A DNA stretch of 60,472 nucleotides, the filler included. It is 5 parts of 5 records of this genome, joined end to end, with 100 filler letters (N's around TTAATTAATTAA, not from the genome) between each part and the next. Parts side by side here need not be neighbours in the genome. Positions count along the whole stretch, not along the records: positions 28,113 to 41,796 come from DRR378314_1048; 4 more parts are not named here. One strand, 5' to 3'. Each line of letters starts with the position of its first letter. The stretch's first letter is position 1. Of the stretch, positions 20,185-48,595 are shown piece by piece. The translations under genes were made by a program, and so were the position numbers. The notes below the pieces were generated by a model. It was not told the origin of the DNA. It did no database searches and was given only the letters and a program-made list of their open reading frames with translations.

Positions 20185-20284
20185 NNNNNNNNNNNNNNNN
20201 NNNNNNNNNNNNNNNNNNNNNNNNNNNNTTAATTAATTAANNNNNNNNNNNNNNNNNNNNNNNNNNNNNNNNNNNNNNNNNNNN
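20185..20284. other. Artificial contig-joining spacer
   Basis: 44 N + TTAATTAATTAA (stop codons in all six frames) + 44 N, preceded by a 19-A homopolymer. Confidence 0.98.
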
Positions 20285-28012: not shown

Positions 28013-28112
28013 NNNNNNNNNNNNNNNNNNNNNNNNNNNNNNNNNNNNNNNNNNNNTTAATTAATTAANNNNNNNNNNNNNNNNNNNNNNNNNNNNNNNN
28101 NNNNNNNNNNNN
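28013..28112. other. Artificial contig-joining spacer
   Basis: N-run + TTAATTAATTAA + N-run. Confidence 0.98.
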
Positions 28113-28113
28113 G

Positions 28114-31340: not shown

Positions 31341-33705
31341 TGGCAAAAACCTTTAGCAAAGCGGAGGGCGGTTTGCGCATCAGACGCATTGCCGGCCATA
31401 GGGCAGCCAATACCGCCGCGATCAGCGCATAGGTGCCCAGCCAGAAATATTCGACCGGGAACAGATACATGGGCAGTTGCCAGCCAAACGCCTCTACATT
31501 GATAATGCTGAGCAGAACCCAAGCGAGGGCCAGCCCCAAGGGCACCGCACAGAGAAACACCAGCGTCGCCAGCGCCACGGCGCGCAGCACCTCAAGCCAG
31601 CCCAACATCCGCCGCGTCAGCCCCAAGGCCCAGACCGGGGCAAGCTGCGGCACACGCAGATCGGCCAAAGTCAGCAGGCTCATCAAAATCGCGAAACCGG
31701 CAACCATCAGGGTCAGCGCGTTCAGCGCGGCGGTGACGGTGAATGTTCGCTCAAACACCTGCATCGACAGCGCCTTGATCGCCACCTGATCGGTGATCGC
31801 ATTGGGCGCAATGCCAAGCGCCTGCGTCAGATCCTCGCGCAAGGCCGCCGGGTCCGCGCTGCGTATGCCAAAGCGCAGCGGCACCAGCGACGGATGCAGC
31901 CTTTCAAACAGCGATTGCGCAATCACAACCTGCCCGTTGGGATTACCGTAATCGCCGACAACCGCTGCAATGGGCAGGGTCAGCTTCGCGTCAATCTCGA
32001 CATCGTCACCCACCCGCAACCCCGCACGGCGGGCCAGTTGTTCATTCACCACCACCGCCTGCCCCGCCGCAACCGCATCCCATGGCTGTGTCGCCGCCGC
32101 CAGAAACACCCAGTTGTCACGATAGGTGGGCCCAACCCGGACACTATATAATTCGGTCGGGCGACCGGTGATGCGTGTTTGCACCGACATCAGTGGCAGC
32201 GCCTCAATGGCCTTTGCATCCAGATAGGACAGCAGCGCGGCACTTTCCTCCGCGGTTTCAACCTGCACAAACAACTCCGGCGCAAGCCGTTGATCAAGAA
32301 AGCCAATAAAGGTCAGCCTGAAACTCGATACCATGGTCGACACACCGATATTGGCCGCGACCGCCAGCAACAGCGCCATCAGGGCAAGGCTCAGCCCCGG
32401 CAATTGCTGCCGCGTATCGGCCCAGAACCATTGCCACAACGGGGCGCGGGCGCGGGTCTCGCATATAGATAGCATCAGGGCGGTGACAACGGGCAGCGCA
32501 AGGGCGGCCCCGATCAACAGACAGCCCAGCAAGGCAAAGCCCGCGATCAACCCTTTGCCGAATATGGCCAGAAGCAGCGCTGCGCCCAGCAGGACCATGG
32601 CCCCCTGTGTCTGAAACCGGAACCGCGCGGCCGAGGCCATGACCCAAGCACGTGGGCGCACACTGGCCAGCAAGGGCATATGGCTGATCTGCCAGATCCG
32701 CCCTGCCAATGCGATGGCGGTGCCAAGCAGCGCTATCAACAGCCCCGACAGCCACCATTCGACGCGGATGTGCAGCTTGCCGGAAATTTCTGCCCCATAA
32801 AGCCCGCGCAGGGTGGCGGCGACATCGGGCAGCAAAAGCGCCGCGATAAGATAGCCCGCAATCACCCCCAGCGCCGCACCAATGGCGGCCAATGTCATCA
32901 TCTCAACCGCAATCATCGTGAGCAACAGGCGCAAGGGCACGCCCAAAGAGCGCAGCGTGCGGATCATCCCCCGACGCTGCTCAAACGCCAGGCCGATGGT
33001 GCTGTGCACAATAAACAGACCCACGGCAAAGCTGAGCAAGCCAAAGGCGGTGAGGTTCAGATGGAAACTATCGGTCAATTGCCCGATGTCCGCCCCTTGC
33101 GCTGCGGCTTGCAGACGCAGCTCCGGGGCGACACTGGACAGATCCGGCCTGCCAAGCGGTTGATCTGGCAGAACGATCAGGCGGGACAGATCATTGCGGT
33201 TCAACAGGGTTTGCACGGTGCCTATCTCGGCGATGCCAATGCCCGGTGCAATGCTGGCATCCACGGTGACCGTCAGACCCGCTTGCAAACGCTCTGCGGT
33301 CTGTGGATTCACAAACACCTGTTCCGCACCAGCTTCACCCACTGTCAAAAGCCGTTCCGGTTGCAGCCCACCAAGCCCGCCGGGGGTGGTGACGGGATCA
33401 ACCCCAATGATGCGCAGCCCCTGAAGCCGCCCCTCGATCACCGGCGAGACCAGCCAGCCTGCCCGCCTGAGCGTGATATACGTCTCTTGCGGAATGCGAC
33501 TGCCTTGCCGTGGCACCAACTGGTCAAACTGCCCCTCGCCCAGAGTTGCTGCGGCGTTGTCATAACTCGCGCGGGCCTCTGCGTTGATCGCCTGCACACC
33601 GGACCATAAGGCAGTGGCCAGCGCCAATCCCGCGAGATAGGCAAACAGCTGGATCGGGTTGCGCCGCCAATGCGACAAAAGCGCCGAAAAACAGGCCCCT
33701 ATCAT
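31330..33705 (-). CDS. ABC transporter permease with duplicated MacB/FtsX domains (AttF/G-like)
   Basis: 791 aa with two FtsX-like TM clusters (LRSLGV; INVEAFGW). Translationally coupled to the ATPase through an ATGA overlap. Confidence 0.88.
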   Translation of the reverse strand: MIGACFSALLSHWRRNPIQLFAYLAGLALATALWSGVQAINAEARASYDNAAATLGEGQFDQLVPRQGSRIPQETYITLRRAGWLVSPVIEGRLQGLRIIGVDPVTTPGGLGGLQPERLLTVGEAGAEQVFVNPQTAERLQAGLTVTVDASIAPGIGIAEIGTVQTLLNRNDLSRLIVLPDQPLGRPDLSSVAPELRLQAAAQGADIGQLTDSFHLNLTAFGLLSFAVGLFIVHSTIGLAFEQRRGMIRTLRSLGVPLRLLLTMIAVEMMTLAAIGAALGVIAGYLIAALLLPDVAATLRGLYGAEISGKLHIRVEWWLSGLLIALLGTAIALAGRIWQISHMPLLASVRPRAWVMASAARFRFQTQGAMVLLGAALLLAIFGKGLIAGFALLGCLLIGAALALPVVTALMLSICETRARAPLWQWFWADTRQQLPGLSLALMALLLAVAANIGVSTMVSSFRLTFIGFLDQRLAPELFVQVETAEESAALLSYLDAKAIEALPLMSVQTRITGRPTELYSVRVGPTYRDNWVFLAAATQPWDAVAAGQAVVVNEQLARRAGLRVGDDVEIDAKLTLPIAAVVGDYGNPNGQVVIAQSLFERLHPSLVPLRFGIRSADPAALREDLTQALGIAPNAITDQVAIKALSMQVFERTFTVTAALNALTLMVAGFAILMSLLTLADLRVPQLAPVWALGLTRRMLGWLEVLRAVALATLVFLCAVPLGLALAWVLLSIINVEAFGWQLPMYLFPVEYFWLGTYALIAAVLAALWPAMRLMRKPPSALLKVFANER

Positions 33706-34358
33706 GCCAGCAGGCCGCTTTTCAGATGCAAGCGGCGCTGCATGCGGGCGGCGATGGCTGGCGAATGGGTCACCAACATCAGCCCGGCCCCGGTCTGCGT
33801 GACAAGATCCAGCATCTGTTCCAGCACCTCTTCTGCTGTGCCCTCATCCAGATTCCCCGTGGGTTCATCCGCCAGCAAGAGTTTCGGTTTGGCGGCAAGC
33901 GCGCGGGCAATCGCCACACGCTGTTGTTGCCCCCCGGACAGGGTTTCGGGGTAGGCGTTCAAATGATCCGCCAACCCCAAGGCTGCGCTGACTTGGGCGA
34001 TGTGGCTGGCATCCCCCCGCCCGGCAAGGCGCGCCTGAAACGCAATATTGGCGGTAACTGTCAGCGAGGGGATGAGGTTAAATTGTTGAAAAACCAATGC
34101 GATATCGGTACGGCGCAGCTGCGCAAGGGCACCGTCTTCCATCGGGCCAAGGTTTTGACCTGCAACCTTGACAGTGCCGCTGTCGAACGCCTCCAGCCCG
34201 GCGGCCACATGCAAAAGCGTGCTTTTGCCACTGCCGGATTCCCCGGTCAGCGCCAATGTCTGCCCCGCCGCCAGATCAAAGCTGACCCCGCGCAGCACTG
34301 GCACTGGCCCGTCATTGCTTGGAAATGATTTCTCGACCTTGTCGAATTCTAACAGCAT
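33702..34358 (-). CDS. ABC transporter ATP-binding protein (LolD/MacB-like)
   Basis: GESGSGKST, LSGGQQQRV, LLADEPTGNLD and VTHS motifs. Confidence 0.95.
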   Translation of the reverse strand: MLLEFDKVEKSFPSNDGPVPVLRGVSFDLAAGQTLALTGESGSGKSTLLHVAAGLEAFDSGTVKVAGQNLGPMEDGALAQLRRTDIALVFQQFNLIPSLTVTANIAFQARLAGRGDASHIAQVSAALGLADHLNAYPETLSGGQQQRVAIARALAAKPKLLLADEPTGNLDEGTAEEVLEQMLDLVTQTGAGLMLVTHSPAIAARMQRRLHLKSGLLA

Positions 34359-34469
34359 GGCCATCTCCCGTGACCCTCAGATTTAGCGGATCGTGGCAGG
34401 ATTGACAGCAGCTTGCCCGAAATTGACCAATGTGACGCGGGCATGGCAAGCTGCCGCGTGGGACGCGAC

Positions 34470-35024
34470 CTAAAAACTTGGCGGCGTGCAGGCGCTGATG
34501 ATCTTGCAAGGGGCGTCACTGATATTGCGGAACCTGTGTGGCAAGCGGCTGTCAAACAGGTACCCCTCACCAGCCCGCAGCACCCTGACCTGATCCGCGA
34601 CAGTGATTTCGATTTCGCCCGCCGTTACAATCCCAGCTTCTTCACCCGCATGGGTCAGTAATTCTGGCCCGGTATCTGCCTGCGGCGGATAGGTTTCATC
34701 CAAAACCTGCAACGAATGTGTGCTGGCGTCGCCAAGCTGGCGCAAAGACACCCCCTGCACCCCCGATTGCGGGGCGATTTCGACAAATTCTTCCGCTTTG
34801 TAGAAATAGGTGGGCTGGGTTTCTTCTTCGATATTGGCGAAAAATTCGGCGATGCTCATGGGAATCGCGTCCAGCAGGCTTTTGAGGGAGGCAACCGAGG
34901 GGCTGGTCTTGTTCTGTTCAATGAGCGAAATCGTGCCATTGGTCAAACCTGCCCGCGCAGCCAGCTCGCGTTGCGACAACCCCTGCGCCTTGCGCAATTC
35001 CTGTAGTCTTTTCCCAATGTTCAC
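34470..35024 (-). CDS. XRE-HTH + cupin transcriptional regulator (PuuR-like)
   Basis: LSQRELAARAGLTNGTISLIEQNKTSPSVASL and a cupin HAGEEAG..FDSRLPHRFRN. Divergent from gabT. The start is GTG 35024 or ATG 35039. Confidence 0.85.
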   Translation of the reverse strand: MNIGKRLQELRKAQGLSQRELAARAGLTNGTISLIEQNKTSPSVASLKSLLDAIPMSIAEFFANIEEETQPTYFYKAEEFVEIAPQSGVQGVSLRQLGDASTHSLQVLDETYPPQADTGPELLTHAGEEAGIVTAGEIEITVADQVRVLRAGEGYLFDSRLPHRFRNISDAPCKIISACTPPSF

Positions 35025-35115
35025 AAGGCTTTCCCTCATTGGTTCGTTTTTTTTGGTTTCGCCGCTTCTCTAACGCATCTTGAACTTGGTCAAAAGCCAA
35101 ATGGGCGCTTTCGGG

Positions 35116-35196
35116 AAATTGTAACAATTGACAGCTGCAGCAGGCCACTGTTGTGTATTGACAGCTATAATAAACGCACTATGAGAATTTTAAACA
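35116..35196 (+). promoter_or_regulatory. Putative gabT promoter/operator region
   Basis: TTGACA at 35158 with TATGAG 16 nt downstream, a near-palindrome AATTGTAACAATT, and AT-rich boxes CTATAATAAACG and GAATTTTAAACA. Confidence 0.4.
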
Positions 35197-35256
35197 CCCC
35201 CACCAATAGAATCATCCTTGGGGGCTTTCATGTTCTGATGCCGTAGGAGCCTCGCC

Positions 35257-36657
35257 ATGTCGAACACTGTAAAGAAGAAGTCCCGCAAGGCCACAACCAA
35301 AGCCAAAACAAAGCCAGTGATGTCAGTTGTACCGGACGTTGCCGTTACCACGACAACCGGCAAAAGCAACGCAGAGCTGATTGCCCGCCGTGAAGCTGCG
35401 GTTGCGCGTGGTGTTGCATCTGCTGCGCCGGTCTTTGCGGATCACGCAGAGAATGCGGAGCTTTGGGACGTCGAAGGCAACCGTTATGTAGATTTCGCCG
35501 GTGGTATCGCGGTTCTGAACACCGGGCACCGTCACCCCAAGGTGATTGCCGCCGCCAAGGCGCAGGAAGATCATTATACACACACCAGCTTTCAGGTTGT
35601 GCCCTATGAACCCTATGTCGCGCTGGCGGAAAAGCTGAACGCGCTGGCACCGGGTGATCACGCCAAGAAATCCCTGTTGGTCACCACTGGTGCGGAAGCG
35701 GTCGAGAATGCGGTAAAGATCGCGCGCGCGGCCACGGGCCGTCCCGGTGTTATCGCCTTTACCGGTGGTTATCACGGCCGCACTCTACTGACGCTGGGCA
35801 TGACCGGCAAAGTATCGCCTTACAAAAAAGACGTGGGGCCCTTCCCGTCAGACATCTTCCGTGCGCCCTTCCCTTCCCAGCGTGACGGTATCACCGTTCA
35901 GGACGCCCTGACCGGCCTGCAAAATCTGTTCCTGACAGATGCGCAGCCGGAGCGTATCGCCTGTATCATCATCGAACCCGTTTTGGGCGAAGGCGGCTAT
36001 ACACCAGTGCCTTTCGAGATGCTGACCGCCCTGCGCGAGATCTGTGACCAGCATGGTATCATGTTGATTGCAGACGAAATTCAGGCGGGCTTTGGCCGGA
36101 CTGGCACATGGTTTGCAATTGAACATTCCGGCGTGGTGCCGGATTTGATCACTGTGGCAAAATCTATGGCTGGCGGTTACCCGATTGCGGGCGTGATTGG
36201 CCGTGCCGAGGTGATGGATGCGGTTATTCCGGGCGGTTTGGGCGGCACCTATGGCGGCAACCCTGTGGCATGTGCTGCGGCTCTGGCGGCCATCGAAGCA
36301 ATCGAAGAAGAGGACCTGCTGGCCCGCTCCACTGCTTTGGGTCAGACCTTCCGCGACCGGTTTGCCGAAATCGGTGCCCGTGTGTCCCCTTTCCGCATGT
36401 GGGACATTCGCGGGTTGGGTGCGATGCTGGCGGTCGAATTTGTGACCGACTTTGAAACAGCAACACCGGATGCGGCCCTGACCAAAGCGGTTGTGGCACA
36501 TGCTTTGCAGCGTGGTTTGATCCTCTTGGCCTGTGGCATGCATGGCAACGCCCTGCGGATCATGGTGCCGCTGACCGCATCGGATGCCATCATCGACGAA
36601 GGCATCGCAATCTTTGAGGCGGCATTGGCCGCCGCGATTGCCGAACAGCAGATCTGA
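35257..36657 (+). CDS. gabT: 4-aminobutyrate aminotransferase (class III, GabT/PuuE)
   Basis: [38 protein letters not shown] lysine in VAKSMAGG and [16 protein letters not shown]. Confidence 0.92.
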
Positions 36658-36681
36658 GCCACGTCATTGACGTAATATCCG

Positions 36682-36709
36682 GGGCGGTCCGAATTGGACC
36701 GCCCTTTCT
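36682..36709 (+). terminator. Rho-independent terminator after gabT
   Basis: GGGCGGTCC-GAATT-GGACCGCCC followed by TTTCT. Confidence 0.7.
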
Positions 36710-37280
36710 CGTTCCAGCCCCTGCCACAACATGACCTAGCGTCAATCACCCGATAACATTGGCAATTCTCGATTTTCTCCCCCTATATTGGATGGGTGCA
36801 GCAATGCGCGAAGGCAGCGCAACAGCAGCGCAGCCGCCGAATTCATCCCAAAAATTAAGCGCCTTGATAATAATATTAAACATATTTGCTTGAAATTGAC
36901 ATTTTCAGTTGCAAGCATCGCAGTGAGTCGTCAGGCTTCCTAATACCGCTGCTTTCTGGTGTTGGCAGCTTGACCGTCACAAAGAGGGCGGATGCGTTGT
37001 TCACCCAACACGCCCACCAGACAGTCGCGAGCAAAAGTCTGTGTCGCCAAAAAGTGACTCTGCGCAACCGATTGTAAAGGCAGCGAAACGGGGGGGGAAT
37101 GACAGAAGTAGTGCCAAGAACACCATGCCGCGCGCGCTGGTTTCCGCCCGCTTTGCATTATGGGCGCACGGGACCTATTTCACCTGTTTCCGTCCGGGCC
37201 ATAAGGGCATAAAGGATGCGTAACGCAGAGATATTGACGGCCCCCATGGGACGCCTCTGCTTTTACGGAGCTTCCTTGAT

Positions 37281-38255
37281 ATGACCCCTTTTGCAATTGC
37301 CGGCGTCCAGATGTACGTCAACGCCCTTCACCCCAATGTCGAAGGCATGCTGCAGCGCCTTGATGTGCTGATGATGCGCTTTCCCTGGACGCAGATGGTG
37401 TTGTTCAGCGAACTTGCCCCCTTTGGCCCGCTTGAGGAATTCAAGCTGCCGCCGGAAAATGATATCATCGACAAATTCTGCGAGGCCGCCAGACGTCACA
37501 AGATCTGGCTAATCCCCGGATCGATGTTCCTGACAGACCCTGATGACGGGCTGGTGCGCAACACCTCGCTGGTGATCAACCCGGATGGCGATGTGATCCG
37601 CCGCTATGCCAAGATGTTCCCCTTCCTGCCTTATGAGGCAGGCGTTGCGGCAGGCACTGATTTCTGTGTGTTTGACGTGCCGGAGGTGGGGCGCTTTGGC
37701 CTGTCGATCTGTTATGACATGTGGTTCCCCGAAACCACGCGGCAACTGACGTCGCAGGGCGTGGAAGTGTTACTGCACCCGGTGCTGACCGGCACCACAG
37801 ACCGCGACGCAGAGCTGGCGATTGCCCGCGCGACCGCTGCGCAATTCCAGTGCTACGTCATTGATGTCAACGGCCTGGGTGCGGGCGGTGTCGGCCGGTC
37901 CTGCATTGTTGATCCGACCTCGCTGGTGCTGCACCAGTCACAGGGGCAGGAAGACATGTTCCCGATTGAAATTGACCTCTCGATGGTCCGCCGTCAGCGC
38001 GAAACCGGCATGAAAGGTCTGGGTCAGGTTCTGAAGTCCTTCCGCGACCGTCCGGCAGATTTTTCAGTTTATGATCGAAATAGTGGCGTCGACAGCTATC
38101 TGAACACTTTGGGCCCTCTGGCAGTGCCACAACAAGGGTCACGTGCAGGCTTGCATGTGGACCTGCCGGCAACGGCAGAGGCCGAACTAAATGATCGCGA
38201 ACCCAAACTAGGGATCGGGATTTCGCCTGTCATGGGCAAAACAACAGGAAGCTGA
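37281..38255 (+). CDS. Carbon-nitrogen hydrolase (nitrilase/amidase superfamily)
   Basis: Glu-Lys-Cys triad contexts LFSE, RYAK and SICYDMWFPE. Confidence 0.9.
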   Translation: MTPFAIAGVQMYVNALHPNVEGMLQRLDVLMMRFPWTQMVLFSELAPFGPLEEFKLPPENDIIDKFCEAARRHKIWLIPGSMFLTDPDDGLVRNTSLVINPDGDVIRRYAKMFPFLPYEAGVAAGTDFCVFDVPEVGRFGLSICYDMWFPETTRQLTSQGVEVLLHPVLTGTTDRDAELAIARATAAQFQCYVIDVNGLGAGGVGRSCIVDPTSLVLHQSQGQEDMFPIEIDLSMVRRQRETGMKGLGQVLKSFRDRPADFSVYDRNSGVDSYLNTLGPLAVPQQGSRAGLHVDLPATAEAELNDREPKLGIGISPVMGKTTGS

Positions 38256-38317
38256 GCAGAGGATTTGTAGCACAAGCTACGGACCATCTGTATCGGCTCA
38301 TATAGGGAGTACGACCG

Positions 38318-41059
38318 ATGGATTCCGTCAGCGATTACTATTCCGCGACTCAATTGCGCGCCGACCGGTGGAGTGCCTTGCGCGAAAGCGTGATTTCACT
38401 CTGCCGGGAGGGCAACAGCCGGAAGGTGGCGGCACTTAAAAAGAAAATCGAAGAGCTGTTTGACTCGCTGGCGCTGATCGAACCCTATTGGGCCTTTCCC
38501 GGCATGGCCGCTTTTGACCACATGCGCCGGCAGTTTGAATACGGCCATTTCGACGACCTGTCCTTTACCACCAATCGTGTAAAACGGGCGCTGACAACCG
38601 GGGCCTATCGGCGGCGTACCATTCCGCTGGACCGCGACAGTTCCGATGACGAGGAACATAACGACGAGGCCATGCTGTCCCCAGAGGCCCGCGCCATGGC
38701 CCGCCCCTATTTCGAGGTGTTGATCGTTGACAATGTGAACGACCAGCAGGACCGCTGGCTGAAAAGTAATGTCTCGCGTATGCGCCGCCCGGAAGATCCC
38801 TTCCATTACGAGGCTGTGGTGGTGCCCAGCCTTGAAGATGCGCTGATCGCAGTGCTGTTCAACCACAATATTCAGGCGATTGTTGTGCGTCCCGGCCTGG
38901 TGCTGAAATCCAAGAACGACAATGAAATTCTGGCGAAATACATCCACAATGCCAGCCACACAGATTCAATCGACACGATGATGCCCGAAGATTACGGCCC
39001 CGAATTGTGCCGGTTGATCGCGCGCGTACGCCCCGAGCTGGATGCCTATCTGGTCACCGAACGGTCAGTCGAGGACATTGCGGGCCTTGATCTGGGGATT
39101 TGCCGGCGGGTTTTCTATAACCAAGAAGACTTTATGGAGCTGCACCTGAACATCCTGCGCGGGGTGGCAGCGCGGAACAAAACCCCGTTCTTCACCGCAC
39201 TTGTTGAGTATTCCAAACAGCCCACCGGTGTGTTTCACGCAATGCCGATCAGCCGTGGCAAATCCATCACCCGCTCGCATTGGATTCAGGACATGGGCGC
39301 ATTTTACGGGCCGAACATCTTCCTTGCGGAAACCTCTGCCACCTCCGGCGGATTGGATTCATTGCTGGAACCGCATGGTCCGATCAAAGAGGCACAGGAG
39401 CTGGCCAGCCGCGCCTTCGGGTCGAAACAAACCTTCTTTGCCACCAATGGTACCTCGACCTGTAACAAGATCGTTGTGCAGGCGGTGGTGCGCCCCGGTG
39501 ATATCGTGCTGGTCGATCGTGACTGCCATAAATCGCATCACTACGGCATGGTGCTGGCGGGGGCCGAGGTGGTCTATCTCGACAGCTACCCGCTGAATGA
39601 ATATTCGATGTATGGCGCGGTGCCGCTGCGCGAGATCAAACATCAGCTGCTGGCGCTCAAAGCGGCAGGCAAGCTGGATCGTGTGCGGATGCTGCTGCTG
39701 ACCAACTGCACCTTTGACGGGCTGGTCTATAATGTAGAACGGGTGATGGAGGAATGCCTGGCGATCAAGCCGGATCTTGTATTCCTTTGGGATGAAGCAT
39801 GGTTTGCCTTTGCCCGTTTCAGCCCCACCTACCGCCAACGCACCGGCATGCGCACAGCCAATAACCTGCGCAAACGTCTGCGCACAGAGGAACACCAACG
39901 CGACTATGAATTGCAGCAGCTTGAGCTGGAAGGTGCGTCAGACGAGACCATGCTCAACACCCGGCTGATAGCCCCGCCCGATGCACGGATCAGGGTCTAT
40001 GCCACGCAATCGACCCACAAAACCCTGACCTCGCTCAGGCAAGGCTCGATGATCCATGTGAACGATCAGGACTTTAAAGGCGAAGTCGAACAATCGTTTC
40101 ACGAGGCCTATATGACGCACACGTCAACCTCGCCGAACTATCAGATCATTGCGTCGCTGGATGTGGGCCGTCGGCAGGTCGAACTGGAGGGCTTTGAGTT
40201 TGTCCAGCGCCAGATCGAAGCGGCAATGTCGATGCGCAAGGCGATCAGCAGCCACCCGATGCTGCAAAAATACTTCAGGGTGCTGACCGCTGGCGACATG
40301 ATCCCTGAACACCACCGACAAAGCGGCGTGTCCAGCTACTTCGACAACGATCAGGGCTGGACCGACATGTGGGACTGCTGGGAGCAGGACGATTTTGTGC
40401 TGGACGCCACAAGGGTCACGCTGGCGGTGGGTGGCACCGGATGGGATGGCGATACCTTCAAGACCCAGATTTTGATGGATAAATACGGCATCCAGATCAA
40501 CAAGACCTCGCGCAATACGGTCCTGTTCATGACCAATATTGGTACGACACGCTCCTCTGTTGCCTATCTGATCGAGGTGCTGGTCGAGATCGCCAATGAG
40601 CTGGACGAACTGCTTGACGATGCCTCCAAGATGGAGCGCCTGTCGTTTGATCGCAGGGTGAAGAACCTCACCGAAAACTATCCGCCCCTGCCCGATTTCA
40701 GCCGCTTTCATGATGCCTTCCGTCCCGACGACGTGACACCGGAAGGGGATATGCGCACCGCGTATTATCTCAGCTACAACGAGGCGAATTGCGACTATCT
40801 GGAACTGGAGGGTTCGCTGCAGGAAGCACTGGATGCCGATCAGGAGGTGGTCTCGGCCGGGTTCATCATCCCCTACCCCCCCGGTTTCCCGATCCTCGTG
40901 CCGGGACAAGTTGTCAGCAAGGAAATCCTCGCCTTCATGCGGGCCTTGGATGTCAGCGAAATTCACGGATACCGCGCCGATCTGGGGCTGCGTGTCTTTA
41001 CGCCGGAAGCTTTGGAAAGCGTCCAAAGCCCGAAAAAACTTAAACCTGCCGCCGAATAA
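38318..41059 (+). CDS. Large PLP-dependent Orn/Lys/Arg-family amino acid decarboxylase
   Basis: GLDSLLEPHGPIKEAQ, FATNGTST, DRDCHKSH, WDEAW, PLP lysine in QSTHKTL, TSTSPNY and IPYPPGFP. 913 aa. Confidence 0.92.
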   Translation: MDSVSDYYSATQLRADRWSALRESVISLCREGNSRKVAALKKKIEELFDSLALIEPYWAFPGMAAFDHMRRQFEYGHFDDLSFTTNRVKRALTTGAYRRRTIPLDRDSSDDEEHNDEAMLSPEARAMARPYFEVLIVDNVNDQQDRWLKSNVSRMRRPEDPFHYEAVVVPSLEDALIAVLFNHNIQAIVVRPGLVLKSKNDNEILAKYIHNASHTDSIDTMMPEDYGPELCRLIARVRPELDAYLVTERSVEDIAGLDLGICRRVFYNQEDFMELHLNILRGVAARNKTPFFTALVEYSKQPTGVFHAMPISRGKSITRSHWIQDMGAFYGPNIFLAETSATSGGLDSLLEPHGPIKEAQELASRAFGSKQTFFATNGTSTCNKIVVQAVVRPGDIVLVDRDCHKSHHYGMVLAGAEVVYLDSYPLNEYSMYGAVPLREIKHQLLALKAAGKLDRVRMLLLTNCTFDGLVYNVERVMEECLAIKPDLVFLWDEAWFAFARFSPTYRQRTGMRTANNLRKRLRTEEHQRDYELQQLELEGASDETMLNTRLIAPPDARIRVYATQSTHKTLTSLRQGSMIHVNDQDFKGEVEQSFHEAYMTHTSTSPNYQIIASLDVGRRQVELEGFEFVQRQIEAAMSMRKAISSHPMLQKYFRVLTAGDMIPEHHRQSGVSSYFDNDQGWTDMWDCWEQDDFVLDATRVTLAVGGTGWDGDTFKTQILMDKYGIQINKTSRNTVLFMTNIGTTRSSVAYLIEVLVEIANELDELLDDASKMERLSFDRRVKNLTENYPPLPDFSRFHDAFRPDDVTPEGDMRTAYYLSYNEANCDYLELEGSLQEALDADQEVVSAGFIIPYPPGFPILVPGQVVSKEILAFMRALDVSEIHGYRADLGLRVFTPEALESVQSPKKLKPAAE

Positions 41060-41073
41060 GAAAAGGAAAAATT

Positions 41074-41796
41074 ATGCCAACAGTTCTCAAAAATATCTCG
41101 GAAATCCGCCGGTTTTTTCACCGCAACGAAGATCCGGTCTACTTCATCTCGGCGACCAACTTTAACCTTTTGGGCCTCGATGAATGGGTAAAGAACTTTA
41201 AATATATCTGTTACATCGACTGTTACGGCGGCAAACATCCAAACGTTTTCTGTCCGTCTGAACAACCCCATGCGGAATTCCAGTCGATTGAAGACATCAA
41301 CAATTACCTGCTTCAGCACAAGGAAGTCATCGACTTTATCAAACGCCGTGGCGGCAAGCCCAAGTTTGTTTTCCTGATGTTCGACGAGGAAACCGAACGT
41401 CTGTCCAAGGAACTTGGCGCGGATGTCTGGTTCCCCAAGGCCAAGCTGCGTTCCAGCATGGACAACAAAATCGAAACCGTGCGCATCGGCAATAAGGCGG
41501 GTGTGCCCTCAGTGCCCAATGTGCTGGCCGAGGTGAAGGATTACGCAGACCTGCAAAAAACCTGCGAGAAAGCCGGCATTGGTCATGATCTGGTGCTGCA
41601 ATCCGCCTTTGGCGATTCAGGGCATACAACCTTCTTTATCAAATCAGAGGCCGACTTCCGCCGTCACGAACACGAGATTGTCGGCGAGGGCGAGATCAAG
41701 ATCATGAAGCGGATCGATTGCCGCGGTTCAGCGATCGAGGCCTGCGCCACCAAGGAAGGCACCATTGTTGGCCCGCTGATGACCGAACTTGTGGGC
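41074..41796 (+). CDS. ATP-grasp ligase-like protein, 3'-truncated
   Basis: DNKIET..AGVPSVP, LVLQSAFGDSGHTTFFI and IKIMKRI resemble ATP-grasp B-domain motifs. It starts 14 nt after the decarboxylase stop. Confidence 0.7.
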
Positions 41797-41896
41797 NNNN
41801 NNNNNNNNNNNNNNNNNNNNNNNNNNNNNNNNNNNNNNNNTTAATTAATTAANNNNNNNNNNNNNNNNNNNNNNNNNNNNNNNNNNNNNNNNNNNN
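41797..41896. other. Artificial contig-joining spacer
   Basis: N-run + TTAATTAATTAA + N-run. Confidence 0.98.
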
Positions 41897-41928: not shown

Positions 41929-42894
41929 ATGCGTATTGAAGTGACGTCGGATGTGTTCAAGCTGGCGGAAGTATTCACCATCAGTCGCGGATCACGGACC
42001 GAGGCCAAAGTGCTGACCGTGCGGATAACTGAGGGCGGTGTGACGGGCTGGGGCGAATGCGTGCCCTATGCCCGTTATGGTGAGACGCTGGAATCGGTTA
42101 CGGCGCAGATTGAAGGGTTGCAGGGGAATGTGACCCGTGAGGCGCTTTATGACCTGCTGCCAGCGGGCGCGGCGCGTAATGCGGTGGACTGTGCCCTATG
42201 GGATTTGCAGGCCAAACAGGCAGGCAAACGGGTTTGGCAACTGGCCGGGCTGGCCGCGCCGGGGCCGGAGATCACCGCCTTTACCCTGTCACTGGCAGAG
42301 CCTGCGCAGATGCAGGCGCAGGCGGCGAAACATGCGCATCGACCATTGCTGAAGATCAAGCTGGGCACGCCCGATGACATGCCACGGCTTGAAGCGGTGC
42401 GGGCAGGGGCCCCGAAGTCGACAATTATCATCGACGCCAATGAGGGTTGGTCGGCAGATGTCTATGCTGATCTGGCACCGCATCTGCTGCGCCTTGGGGT
42501 GGCTTTGGTTGAGCAGCCTTTGCCCGCCGGTGAGGATGATGCATTGATCGGGATGGCGCGGCCCGTGCCGGTTTGCGCAGATGAATCTGCGCATGATTGC
42601 AGCACCTTGTCCAAATTGCGCGGCAAATATGATGTGGTGAACATCAAGCTGGACAAGACTGGCGGATTGACCGAGGCGTTGAAGTTGCGGGCGGCAGCGC
42701 TGGCTGACGGTTATGAGGTGATGGTCGGCTGCATGGTGGGTTCGTCGCTGGCGATGGCACCGGCGACCTTGGTGGCGCAGGGCGCAAAGGTGGTTGATCT
42801 GGATGGTCCGCTTTTGCTAGGCGAAGATCGCGAAGATGCATTGAAATTCGACGCGGAGGGGGTACATCCGCCTGCCGCTGCGCTTTGGGGATAA
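41929..42894 (+). CDS. dgcA: Enolase-superfamily racemase/epimerase (N-acetyl-D-Glu racemase DgcA / L-Ala-D/L-Glu epimerase)
   Basis: FTISRG, KIK, DANEGW, EQP, ADES, NIKLDK, GCMVG and DLDG motifs. Confidence 0.8.
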   Translation: MRIEVTSDVFKLAEVFTISRGSRTEAKVLTVRITEGGVTGWGECVPYARYGETLESVTAQIEGLQGNVTREALYDLLPAGAARNAVDCALWDLQAKQAGKRVWQLAGLAAPGPEITAFTLSLAEPAQMQAQAAKHAHRPLLKIKLGTPDDMPRLEAVRAGAPKSTIIIDANEGWSADVYADLAPHLLRLGVALVEQPLPAGEDDALIGMARPVPVCADESAHDCSTLSKLRGKYDVVNIKLDKTGGLTEALKLRAAALADGYEVMVGCMVGSSLAMAPATLVAQGAKVVDLDGPLLLGEDREDALKFDAEGVHPPAAALWG

Positions 42895-42897
42895 AAG

Positions 42898-43758
42898 ATG
42901 AGAACAGTCTATGTGAACGGCGCTTACCTGCCAGAGAATGAAGCGCAGATTTCGATCTTTGACCGTGGGTTTCTGATGGCGGACGGGGTTTACGAGGTAA
43001 CCTCCGTGCTGGATGGCAAGTTGATTGATTTTGACGGCCATGCGGTGCGGCTGGCGCGGTCCTTGTCAGAGTTGGAGATGCGCAACCCGATCAGCAAGGA
43101 AGACCTGTTGGAGGTGCATCGCGAACTGGTGCGGGTGAACGAGATCGACGAGGGGTTGATCTATCTTCAGATCACACGCGGTTCTGATGGCGACCGCGAT
43201 TTTTCCTTTCCTGATCCTGAGACGACGGAACCGACAGTTGTGCTGTTCACCCAGAACAAGCCCGGCCTGGCGGATAGCCCGGCGGCCAAGAAGGGTGCCA
43301 AGATCATCAGCATTGAGGATATTCGCTGGGGGCGGCGTGACATCAAGACGGTGCAATTGCTGTACCCCTCGATGGGCAAGATGATGGCCAAGAAAGCCGG
43401 GTGCGACGATGCATGGATGGTCGAGGACGGTTTTGTCACCGAAGGCACGTCAAACAATGCTTACATCGTGAAAGGCAACAAGATCATCACGCGGGCGCTG
43501 TCTAATGAGATTCTGCACGGGATCACCCGGGCCGCGGTATTGCGGTTTGCCCGCGAGGCGCAGATGGAAGTGGAAGAGCGCAACTTTACCATTGATGAGG
43601 CGAAGGAGGCGGATGAGGCCTTTACCACCTCGGCCAGTGCTTTTGTGATGCCGGTTGTAGAGATCGACGGCGTTGCGTTGGGTGATGGCACGCCGGGACG
43701 TGTGGCCCCGCGTCTGCGCGAAATTTATCTTGATGAGATGCGCAAGGTTGCAGTCTGA
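42898..43758 (+). CDS. dat: D-amino acid aminotransferase (class IV PLP)
   Basis: DRGFLMADGVYEV, YLQITRG, RRDIKT, EGTSNN and LHGITR motifs. Confidence 0.88.
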   Translation: MRTVYVNGAYLPENEAQISIFDRGFLMADGVYEVTSVLDGKLIDFDGHAVRLARSLSELEMRNPISKEDLLEVHRELVRVNEIDEGLIYLQITRGSDGDRDFSFPDPETTEPTVVLFTQNKPGLADSPAAKKGAKIISIEDIRWGRRDIKTVQLLYPSMGKMMAKKAGCDDAWMVEDGFVTEGTSNNAYIVKGNKIITRALSNEILHGITRAAVLRFAREAQMEVEERNFTIDEAKEADEAFTTSASAFVMPVVEIDGVALGDGTPGRVAPRLREIYLDEMRKVAV

Positions 43759-48495: not shown

Positions 48496-48595
48496 NNNNN
48501 NNNNNNNNNNNNNNNNNNNNNNNNNNNNNNNNNNNNNNNTTAATTAATTAANNNNNNNNNNNNNNNNNNNNNNNNNNNNNNNNNNNNNNNNNNNN
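48496..48595. other. Artificial contig-joining spacer
   Basis: N-run + TTAATTAATTAA + N-run. Confidence 0.98.

Follow-up and report, generated by a model that had tools for sequence, protein, structure and literature searches.

We examined a gene cluster in a 60,472-nt stretch of DNA (hereafter the window; positions count along its whole length) that is made up of five contigs. The cluster lies on the contig at 28113–41796 (DRR378314_1048) and encodes an XRE-cupin regulator, the transaminase GabT, a CN-hydrolase of the nitrilase superfamily, a long pyridoxal phosphate (PLP)-dependent decarboxylase, and an ATP-grasp protein. The reading that we favor, and to which we give about an even chance, is that the locus is a regulon for 4-aminobutyrate (GABA) with an uncharacterized amide side branch, and not a polyamine pathway. 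Gene content, linkage, catalytic residues, folds, and a common promoter box were observed directly; the substrates, the target of the regulator, and the direction of flux are in every case our proposals. The features of the cluster are the following.

34470–35039, minus strand: XRE-cupin regulator, PuuR-like, 189 aa (Pfam HTH_3, 51.7 bits, and Cupin_2, 61.8 bits)
35166–35196, plus strand: AT-rich box, two copies, candidate operator in the regulator–gabT intergenic region
35257–36657, plus strand: GabT, 4-aminobutyrate–2-oxoglutarate transaminase, 466 aa (Aminotran_3, 423 bits; TIGR00700, 555 bits)
36681–36705, plus strand: intrinsic-terminator-like hairpin 3′ of gabT (11-bp stem, T-rich tail)
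36872–36882, plus strand: AT-rich box, third copy, candidate operator/promoter region ~400 nt 5′ of the CN-hydrolase gene
37181–37212, plus strand: remnant of a universal-stress-protein (Usp) gene, 3′ end only, aligning with the last Usp codons and stop in relatives
37225–37264, plus strand: conserved stem-loop and U-run just 5′ of the CN-hydrolase Shine-Dalgarno sequence (GGAG)
37281–38255, plus strand: CN-hydrolase (nitrilase superfamily), unnamed branch, 324 aa (PF00795, 95.8 bits)
38318–41059, plus strand: long-form PLP decarboxylase of the Rv2531c type, 913 aa (OKR_DC_1, 264 bits; PDB 9n0n/9n0o)
41074–41796, plus strand: ATP-grasp protein, N-terminal 241 codons of 485 aa (NF005096/PRK06524), cut by the contig end

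A sequence-only reading of the same stretch had placed the five genes here and had given the intergenic gaps as 62 nt between the CN-hydrolase and decarboxylase genes (38256–38317) and 14 nt between the decarboxylase and ATP-grasp genes (41060–41073); all of this was confirmed. The spacer between gabT and the CN-hydrolase gene is 623 nt.

In the scheme that we propose, the decarboxylase would, by homology, convert L-glutamate to GABA, GabT would convert GABA to succinic semialdehyde, and a succinic semialdehyde dehydrogenase (SSADH) encoded elsewhere would complete the shunt. The XRE-cupin protein would control two units, gabT and a four-gene operon, through the common AT-rich box. The ATP-grasp enzyme would ligate GABA to a partner, X, in the manner of carnosine synthase or the Ebony/Tan pair (version A); alternatively, it would link glutamate by its γ-carboxyl group, and the decarboxylase would then yield GABA-X (version B). 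The C45-family hydrolase encoded by the fourth gene of the operon would split the 4-aminobutanoyl amide, and the CN-hydrolase would remove a second amide. By analogy with known systems, these three enzymes may form and break an amide that involves GABA or the glutamate γ-carboxyl group.

The decarboxylase had been cast in the sequence-only reading as an enzyme of the ornithine, lysine, or arginine type in an analog of the Escherichia coli Puu pathway. That analogy failed. The protein scored far below every NCBIfam equivalog cutoff for such enzymes (LdcC, 221 against 968 bits; CadA type, 211 against 1056; AdiA, 179 against 1167; ornithine decarboxylase, 168 against 794), which rules out a canonical lysine, ornithine, or arginine decarboxylase (LdcC, CadA, AdiA, SpeC/SpeF). 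Its best PDB match (HMMER) was Mycobacterium tuberculosis Rv2531c (9n0n/9n0o; E = 1e-244, 817 bits), residues 42–905 aligning with residues 55–907 of the 947-aa chain 9n0n_A, extra N-terminal domain included; the next best match, an arginine decarboxylase, had E = 6e-63. At 913 aa, the protein has the four-domain architecture of the Rv2531c type (~900–950 aa). In a 2026 report (PMC13506015), Rv2531c is described as a long, four-domain (“KOR-fold”) L-glutamate decarboxylase of the GABA shunt that does not use lysine, ornithine, or arginine, needs Mg2+, and has a K0.5 of 509 mM for glutamate with a Hill number of 4; its deletion removed 84% of the GABA pool and all labeled GABA.

Of the six residues to which PLP or glutamate binding is assigned in Rv2531c, five (H405, K406, R576, T606, and N731) are identical in the window enzyme, as is the PLP lysine, and the sixth, R718, is conservatively replaced by Lys. 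Among homologs, His404, Lys405, Lys568, Arg574, and Thr604 were invariant (96 of 96), Asn728 was present in all 94 that were scored, and the R718-equivalent position held Lys in 92 and Arg in 2. The 913-aa enzyme is, on homology, a probable L-glutamate decarboxylase that makes GABA; because it is close to Rv2531c, its amine product is most likely GABA, the substrate of GabT. GabT itself exceeded the TIGR00700 equivalog cutoff (506.65 bits) and fell below the higher cutoffs that other GabT models set for themselves (NF005692 and others). In the close relative G001 (G and L numbers denote our genomes and loci), two SSADH matches above the TIGR01780 cutoff lie elsewhere in the genome, and a profile search found no canonical glutamate decarboxylase (TIGR01788). 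The simplest reading would be a route from glutamate to GABA (decarboxylase), to succinic semialdehyde (GabT), and on to succinate (SSADH), of which we infer the steps from glutamate to succinic semialdehyde by homology.

One position separated the homologs. Residue 402 of the window enzyme, which precedes the His-Lys pair by three residues, was Asp in 91 of 91 decarboxylases from clade-typical loci, 89 of which had a ligase gene nearby or could not be assessed for one, while L019 and L077 had none. Asn was found in five enzymes, as in Rv2531c: four are from ligase-free genomes, and one is from a Leucobacter metagenome-assembled genome (MAG) in which the sole ATP-grasp relative is remote (32% identical) and encoded on a different contig. 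Residues 299, 312, 569, 734, and 871 split in the same way in a 20-sequence alignment. Given that a single clade accounts for four of the five Asn enzymes, we regard the Asp/Asn split as a lead and not as a result.

The ATP-grasp gene is cut after codon 241 because the contig stops at 41796, as the sequence-only reading had recognized. We used G001 (completeness 100%) as a stand-in for the DNA beyond this point: over 9718 nt it is 99.2% identical to window positions 32079–41796, and the fragment agrees with its ATP-grasp protein at 241 of 241 residues. The gene is complete in G001 (485 aa; NF005096, 753.9 bits against a cutoff of 684), and a 323-aa gene of the C45 family (Cys-Ntn hydrolases) begins ten bases past it, which bears out the earlier suggestion that more genes might follow. 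The operon consists of four genes, for the CN-hydrolase, the decarboxylase, the ATP-grasp protein, and the C45 protein.

These genes travel together. A decarboxylase search of the genomes of 185,579 species gave at least 593 relatives among 600 pattern matches; the best 80 loci, mostly from Rhodobacterales and 73%–94% identical, were kept, and only loci with enough flanking DNA were counted. The ATP-grasp gene lay directly 3′ of the decarboxylase gene in 71 of 73 assessable loci, the C45 gene was present in 68 of 71, and the CN-hydrolase gene lay upstream of the decarboxylase gene in 75 of 77. Exceptions were L019 and L077, which lack all three partners, and L059, which lacks C45. A second sample comprised 401 evenly drawn Pseudomonadota genomes, not picked by similarity (one of them, G384, flagged as unpublished, gave a weak match only, and no claim is built on it). 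The long decarboxylase (E ≤ 1e-120) was found in 15 of these genomes, and a strong NF005096 match (≥510 bits) in 11, all contained in the 15; 8 of the matches exceeded the cutoff and 3 scored 510–655 bits. Within 9 kb of the ATP-grasp gene, decarboxylase and C45 genes were present in 11 of 11 and the CN-hydrolase gene in 9 of 11. The co-occurrence that the sequence-only reading expected in other genomes was thus found in both samples.

Gene order varied. We observed the order CN-hydrolase, decarboxylase, ATP-grasp, C45; the order CN-hydrolase, ATP-grasp, C45, decarboxylase; and a divergent layout, and the module recurred, with differing orders, in other Pseudomonadota families. Because the linkage was kept despite rearrangement, it is good evidence of joint function, and the CN-hydrolase, decarboxylase, ATP-grasp, and C45 genes form a fixed operon. 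The earlier proposal of an amine acylation/catabolism pathway survives insofar as the ligase and hydrolases go with the decarboxylase, and fails as regards a diamine source and the likeness to Puu. gabT had also been counted as a member of the cluster. It and the regulator gene proved to be loose partners: they were no more than 8 kb away in 32 of 69 loci, and only 5 loci had them directly upstream, as in the window.

The decarboxylase also occurs without the ligase, in four complete genomes that have no strong ATP-grasp match (G044, G057, G173, and G257). In two such loci (L093, 9722–11437; L094, 3479–6367), the next gene encodes an Asp-Al_Ex/TrkA_C transporter of the AspT/YidE family; a third has an open reading frame (ORF) of like size and place whose domains were not scanned, and the fourth is obscured by shadow ORFs. 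This is the classic decarboxylase–exchanger layout, and it fits an acidic amino acid substrate and export of the product. The pairing of a ligase-free decarboxylase with an AspT/YidE-type transporter suggests a glutamate/GABA exchange system of new composition. Ligase-bearing loci, in contrast, have no exchanger, and their neighbors are GabT-like transaminases, an aldehyde dehydrogenase, or an importer.

Two distant loci deserve separate description. In L082 (1044–7283; 15966–18967), from a distant family, a class-III aminotransferase and an aldehyde dehydrogenase again flank the module, on one side; on the other side are cyanophycin-synthetase-like, amidohydrolase, M24/creatinase-type peptidase, and AstE/AspA-type deacylase genes. 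We take the set of M24, AstE, aldehyde dehydrogenase, and transaminase genes to resemble those of ectoine degradation. In an Actinomycetota MAG, G402 (L097, 4209–8431), C45 and ATP-grasp genes (47% and 45% identical, respectively) lie beside a divergent amidase-signature gene; our query detected no long decarboxylase there at E ≤ 1e-20, the completeness of this MAG not being given. Because this pair occurs without a detected decarboxylase, C45 and ATP-grasp together with some amidase may be a unit of their own. The amidase-signature gene may be a nonhomologous swap of the amidase.

The ligase and the two hydrolases appear to be functional enzymes. The CN-hydrolase has the PF00795 match and the Glu-Lys-Cys triad of its superfamily, and Glu44, Lys111, Cys144, and Glu151 were kept in 85 of 85 homologs in the loci; it fits no named NCBIfam branch (score/cutoff: formamidase, 60/406; deaminated-glutathione amidase, 57/355; AguB, 51/410). 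The C45 protein matched PF03417 (104.9 bits) and NF040521 (183.5 bits against a cutoff of 85). Its Cys88 was kept in 80 of 81 sequences and preceded by Gly, Ala, or Ser in 80 of 81, and its predicted structure (pLDDT 84) best matched the isopenicillin-N acyltransferase precursor 2x1c (TM 0.70), followed by NAAA, acid ceramidase, and bile-salt hydrolases. Profile, Cys after a small residue, and Cys-Ntn fold together place it in the C45/isopenicillin-N acyltransferase family. Against PDB sequences it had no match at E ≤ 0.01, and a word-indexed search that scored 8000 candidates returned 6067 relatives, all of them with generic names. C45 members with known function cleave small-molecule amides: Drosophila Tan hydrolyzes β-alanyl-dopamine and β-alanyl-histamine (PMC1285064), and AzsT removes an N-succinyl group (PMC10445470).

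The ATP-grasp fragment matched NF005096 over profile positions 15–252 of 493 (381.6 bits), and full-length proteins scored above the cutoff in L005 (760.5 bits) as well as in G001. No Pfam family, biotin-carboxylase domains included, was found in the fragment or in the full protein (E ≤ 0.001), and the best PDB sequence match had E = 9e-7. At E ≤ 1e-30, the family accounts for 351 clusters in a set of 1.84 billion representatives. A structure search with the predicted model (pLDDT 91.6) gave a tie at Z 20–22.7 among PurK, PylC, BesA, PurT, PGM1, the peptide ligase 3wvq, and biotin carboxylases, and the ESM Atlas returned only clusters named “biotin carboxylase” or “ATP-grasp.” The modeled fold indicates ATP-dependent chemistry on a small molecule by way of an acyl phosphate or carboxyphosphate, and nothing more specific. 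No biotin carrier or carboxyltransferase gene was found in the loci beside the ATP-grasp gene, and the NF005096/PRK06524 name “biotin carboxylase” looks wrong. All three enzymes look active, judging by the intact catalytic residues of the CN-hydrolase and C45 proteins and the confident ATP-grasp model. The ATP-grasp C terminus (L090, 8956–8985, and homologs) ends in a (D/E)PAFKI(L/M) tail across Rhodobacterales, with FKIL in more distant families; this conserved tail may be a docking motif.

The regulator matched the PuuR model NF007408 over its full length at 158.4 bits, below the cutoff of 211. The PuuR-like label that it had been given is right for the helix-turn-helix and cupin architecture, and by this score we class the protein as PuuR-like and not as PuuR. 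Its gene diverges from gabT, and a homolog diverges directly from the transporter–operon unit (described below) in L027, L044, and L046. The box WWTWWTAAACR has three matches in the window (0.26 expected), all in the gabT and operon promoter regions, a circular statistic because the pattern was defined from these same three sites. The block around the third copy is conserved within an otherwise diverged gabT–CN-hydrolase spacer. Across 98 loci, 40 matches were found in 1.64 Mb, against ~7 expected at the window chance rate, and 37 of the 40 lay upstream of gabT, a transporter gene, or the CN-hydrolase gene: 20 were 43–113 nt 5′ of gabT, 10 were 211–302 nt 5′ of the transporter gene heading the unit, 3 were between a divergent regulator homolog and the transporter gene, and 4 were 5′ of the CN-hydrolase gene in transporter-less loci. 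One further match lay 100 nt before the CN-hydrolase gene on the other strand, and two lay elsewhere. Via this candidate box, gabT and the operon are probably one regulon under the XRE-cupin protein.

The hairpin 3′ of gabT has 11 pairs, 8 of them G-C, followed by a T-rich tail, and the same hairpin is kept in L001, L005, and L006; a scan of terminator-like sites overall found 4 against a shuffle mean of 4.6, that is, no excess. The sequence-only reading had concluded from this terminator that the two halves of the cluster could be independent. They are, as far as the hairpin and the common box indicate, separate transcription units that are probably coregulated: separateness stands, and independence probably does not. 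Lack of coregulation with gabT was among the outcomes that would have refuted the earlier proposal, and on the evidence of the box this check came out in favor of the pathway.

Many relatives carry additional genes at the head of the operon. Among the 69 loci with 7 kb of DNA upstream, 42 have, ahead of the CN-hydrolase gene, genes for an NMT1_3 binding protein and for a membrane protein that is a DctM-DUF3394 fusion, a pair that we take to be a TAXI-type TRAP importer (TAXI-SBP and TAXI-QM); a Usp gene is also present in 28 of the 69. The window lacks the transporter and Usp genes but retains the last bases of Usp and the Usp/CN-hydrolase spacer, and the transporter genes were therefore deleted in the window lineage, as in L001, L005, and L006. 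The deletion, of ~4.5 kb, left the promoter-side box and the downstream spacer in place. Within that spacer, the outer stem of the stem-loop is 70% paired against 63.6% in shuffles (0 of 500 reached 70%), and pair 55–92 is G-C in 9 sequences and A-U in 8, which is some compensatory change; the folding energy is unremarkable (z = −1.0). RNAalifold gave no consensus structure for 27 upstream regions, where only the stem named beforehand could be counted, and Rfam had no match in the contig at gathering scores and none at E ≤ 10 in the gabT–CN-hydrolase spacer. The element could be an attenuator, a processing site, or a stabilizer. A 12-codon ORF, read by eye, lies within 37235–37283 (ATG at 37246), and its TGA overlaps the CN-hydrolase ATG (ATATGA).

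Several points weigh against a GABA regulon with an amide side branch. The K0.5 of Rv2531c is so high (509 mM) that free glutamate may not be the best substrate even of that enzyme. With a ligase and a hydrolase for one amide in the same operon, cycling would be futile unless the two enzymes work at different times or on different bonds. The Arg proposed to bind the glutamate γ-carboxylate is invariant in 96 of 96 homologs, which argues against a γ-substituted substrate. Apart from the circularity of the window box statistic, L090 duplicates the window among the loci with boxes, and many of the others are close kin. Foldseek ranks biotin carboxylase and PurK first for the ATP-grasp model, and the structure search does not separate an amide ligase from a carboxylase. 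Finally, the Actinomycetota locus indicates that the C45/ATP-grasp pair may not need the long decarboxylase. As to the two versions of the ligase step, the Asp402 signature and a K0.5 of half a molar for free glutamate speak for version B, and the invariant γ-carboxylate Arg, the lack of a carrier gene, and the existence of ligase-free enzymes speak for version A.

It is possible, though we think it unlikely, that in bacteria with the ligase set the decarboxylase works not on free glutamate but on a ligase-made γ-glutamyl conjugate, yielding a 4-aminobutanoyl conjugate from which the Ntn enzyme would transfer or release the GABA unit. If true, this would be a new ATP-gated, protective-group path from glutamate to GABA or to a GABA amide (a solute or signal), and it would explain the half-molar K0.5 of the characterized homolog. 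A full butirosin-like form of the idea seems improbable to us. In it, γ-Glu-X, formed by the ATP-grasp enzyme (X being a carrier: an amine, an amino acid, or a thiol), would be the true decarboxylase substrate in ligase-bearing bacteria and free glutamate a poor surrogate, the C45 enzyme would transfer or release the 4-aminobutanoyl group, and the CN-hydrolase would deprotect. The BtrJ/BtrK precedent (PMC11350588) and the 509 mM K0.5 of Rv2531c for free glutamate (PMC13506015) speak for this route. C45 relatives are acyltransferases or hydrolases of γ/δ-linked amino-acyl amides, and Asp402 is found in all 91 clade-typical decarboxylases and Asn in the 5 without a close ATP-grasp homolog, a split that may be merely phylogenetic given that four of the five form one clade. 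Against this route, there is no carrier-protein gene in the operon, with its gaps of 62 and 14 nt, the γ-carboxylate Arg is invariant, and decarboxylases exist without the ligase, Rv2531c making GABA in vivo without one.

The presence of the importer invites a catabolic explanation, which we hold to be distinctly improbable. Here an imported amide, ureide, or lactam of glutamate or GABA would enter through the TRAP system, the hydrolases would free glutamate ahead of the decarboxylase, and the ligase, as a PurK- or biotin-carboxylase-like enzyme, would activate a stable N-C bond by ATP-dependent carboxylation or phosphorylation. The TAXI-type importer and Usp genes found at the start of the unit (in 42 and 28 of 69 loci, respectively), PurK and biotin carboxylase among the closest folds, and the inclusion of the catabolic gabT in the regulon are all in keeping with it, as is the amidase-signature gene that takes the place of the CN-hydrolase gene beside C45 and ATP-grasp in the Actinomycetota MAG; the amidase-signature family is that of allophanate hydrolase. 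The importer is dispensable, however, having been lost from the window and from L001, L005, and L006 while the four genes stayed, and there is neither a biotin carrier or carboxyltransferase gene nearby nor a Pfam biotin-carboxylase domain in the full protein.

That the halves are unrelated, gabT and the regulator adjoining by chance a four-gene operon with no role in GABA metabolism, is highly improbable: the terminator-like hairpin and the loose linkage of gabT (within 8 kb in 32 of 69 loci, directly adjacent in 5) would allow it, but the common box stands in front of both units across many genomes, a class-III aminotransferase and an aldehyde dehydrogenase flank the module again in L082, and the decarboxylase product would, by homology, be the substrate of GabT. 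We give hardly any credence to a Puu-like polyamine pathway, in which the decarboxylase would make putrescine, cadaverine, or agmatine, the ATP-grasp enzyme would acylate it, and the nitrilase-type enzyme would hydrolyze the oxidized conjugate to GABA. A PuuR-like regulator (158 bits, full length) and GabT do adjoin the operon, and the decarboxylase has an OKR_DC_1 domain, but the scores far below all lysine, ornithine, and arginine equivalog cutoffs, the inactivity of its close relative Rv2531c on these amino acids, the lack of an oxidase or aldehyde dehydrogenase in the conserved set, and the acidic-amino-acid exchanger beside ligase-free homologs point away from diamines. An ATP-grasp enzyme served by a glutaminase is the logic of carbamoyl-phosphate synthetase. 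The least probable explanation is an amidotransferase of this kind, with C45 or CN-hydrolase as the glutaminase that feeds ammonia to the ATP-grasp enzyme (for example, to convert GABA to 4-aminobutanamide): nitrilase-type glutaminase domains serve NAD synthetase (PMC3376133), and the conserved FKIL/M tail could dock a partner, but two different hydrolases are kept, and the C45 relatives of known function cleave secondary amides and not glutamine.

The decarboxylase and GabT belong to known families. We found no description of the four-gene operon with a ligase and two hydrolases in the open-access literature searched, nor, as the sequence-only reading had supposed, any characterized pathway that covers the ligase and hydrolases, and the Rv2531c paper (PMC13506015) contains no occurrence of “neighbo,” “ATP-grasp,” or “nitrilase.” The points added here are the regulon box, the deletion relic, the decarboxylase–exchanger contrast, the Asp/Asn signature, and the decarboxylase-free exception. 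The long-form glutamate decarboxylase was recognized only in 2026, and then solely as an enzyme acting by itself; it is almost never alone in Rhodobacterales and several other families of Pseudomonadota, a host group that includes culturable, nonpathogenic bacteria. Once solved, the reaction would add a new step, or a new metabolite, to the glutamate/GABA node in abundant marine bacteria; annotations by the hundreds (“lysine decarboxylase,” “biotin carboxylase,” “choloylglycine hydrolase”) would be put right, and the odd kinetics of Rv2531c might be explained.

The surroundings of the cluster are as follows. The contig joins are N runs around a TTAATTAATTAA linker, at 20185–20284, 28013–28112, 41797–41896, and 48496–48595, and genes on either side of a linker are not neighbors. 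The genes from 41929 on, including enolase-superfamily-like and aminotransferase-like ORFs at 41929–43758 (judged from their translations only), thus belong to another contig and are not neighbors of the cluster; the segment 22001–24000, also on another contig, has 71.5% G+C against 52%–65% in the rest of the window. Upstream of the regulator gene are genes for an ABC/FtsX exporter pair and a CrtC-like lipocalin, apparently with no relation to the cluster. In G001 (L090, 1–7900), the operon borders mobile-element debris, with relaxase, TraA-like helicase, and transposase fragments and a SUKH-family gene 3′ of C45. In S. mediterraneus (L005, 13199–16210, minus strand), a gene convergent on the operon encodes a 1003-aa fusion of APH, M23, and class-III aminotransferase domains (NF004799/PRK06148, 1460 bits) that was found in 1 of the 80 loci.

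Among known systems, Rv2531c (PDB 9N0N/9N0O/9N0P; PMC13506015, PMC12329521) is the closest to the window decarboxylase, sharing its four domains, its key residues, and a GABA transaminase downstream; the window enzyme differs in belonging to a fixed operon with ATP-grasp, C45, and CN-hydrolase genes, in having Asp and not Asn at position 402, and in having Lys at the R718 equivalent. The E. coli Puu system (PuuR, PuuA, PuuB, PuuC, PuuD, PuuE) shares with the window a PuuR-type XRE-cupin regulator and the use of a GABA transaminase for the final step on the amine, and in idea an ATP-dependent ligase and an amide hydrolase bracket the chemistry in both, a resemblance of outline only. No PuuA-type glutamine-synthetase-like ligase, PuuD-type class-I amidotransferase hydrolase, oxidase, or aldehyde dehydrogenase was found on the contig or the G001 continuation (the rest of the genome was not searched), and the amine would come from a glutamate decarboxylase in the window, whereas it is imported putrescine in Puu. 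Sinorhizobium meliloti SMa0680/SMa0682, considered as a possible instance of the module, was dropped: in papers these genes are candidates for putrescine synthesis beside an arginine/agmatine antiporter (the sequences were not compared).

In butirosin biosynthesis (PMC11350588), BtrJ ligates glutamate by its side-chain carboxyl group and BtrK then α-decarboxylates it to a GABA unit. The likeness of this system (BtrJ ATP-grasp ligase, BtrI carrier, BtrK PLP decarboxylase, BtrH acyltransferase, BtrG deprotection) to ours lies in the order of the logic only (sequence homology was not compared). BtrJ-like enzymes are an ATP-grasp clade in the literature. The window module, however, sits in a catabolic regulon of many free-living bacteria and not in an antibiotic cluster, and a carrier-protein gene has no room between the operon genes and is absent from the conserved neighbors. 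The PLP fold of BtrK differs from that of the window decarboxylase. Homocarnosine, a dipeptide of GABA, is also among the products of carnosine synthase, an enzyme of the ATP-grasp type. Ebony and Tan are likewise a make/split pair for ω-aminoacyl amides, and Tan is a member of the isopenicillin-N acyltransferase/C45 family with a conserved Gly-Cys processing site; unlike the window genes, these and carnosine synthase are animal enzymes encoded at separate loci, and Ebony resembles nonribosomal peptide synthetases and not ATP-grasp enzymes. Decarboxylase–antiporter pairs (GadB/GadC; aspartate decarboxylase/AspT) resemble the ligase-free homologs, which are followed by an Asp-Al_Ex/TrkA_C transporter. 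The window operon differs from these pairs in having no exchanger, in having a ligase and hydrolases, and in its link to GabT; the lack of an exchanger and the GabT link imply that GABA is kept and used inside the cell.

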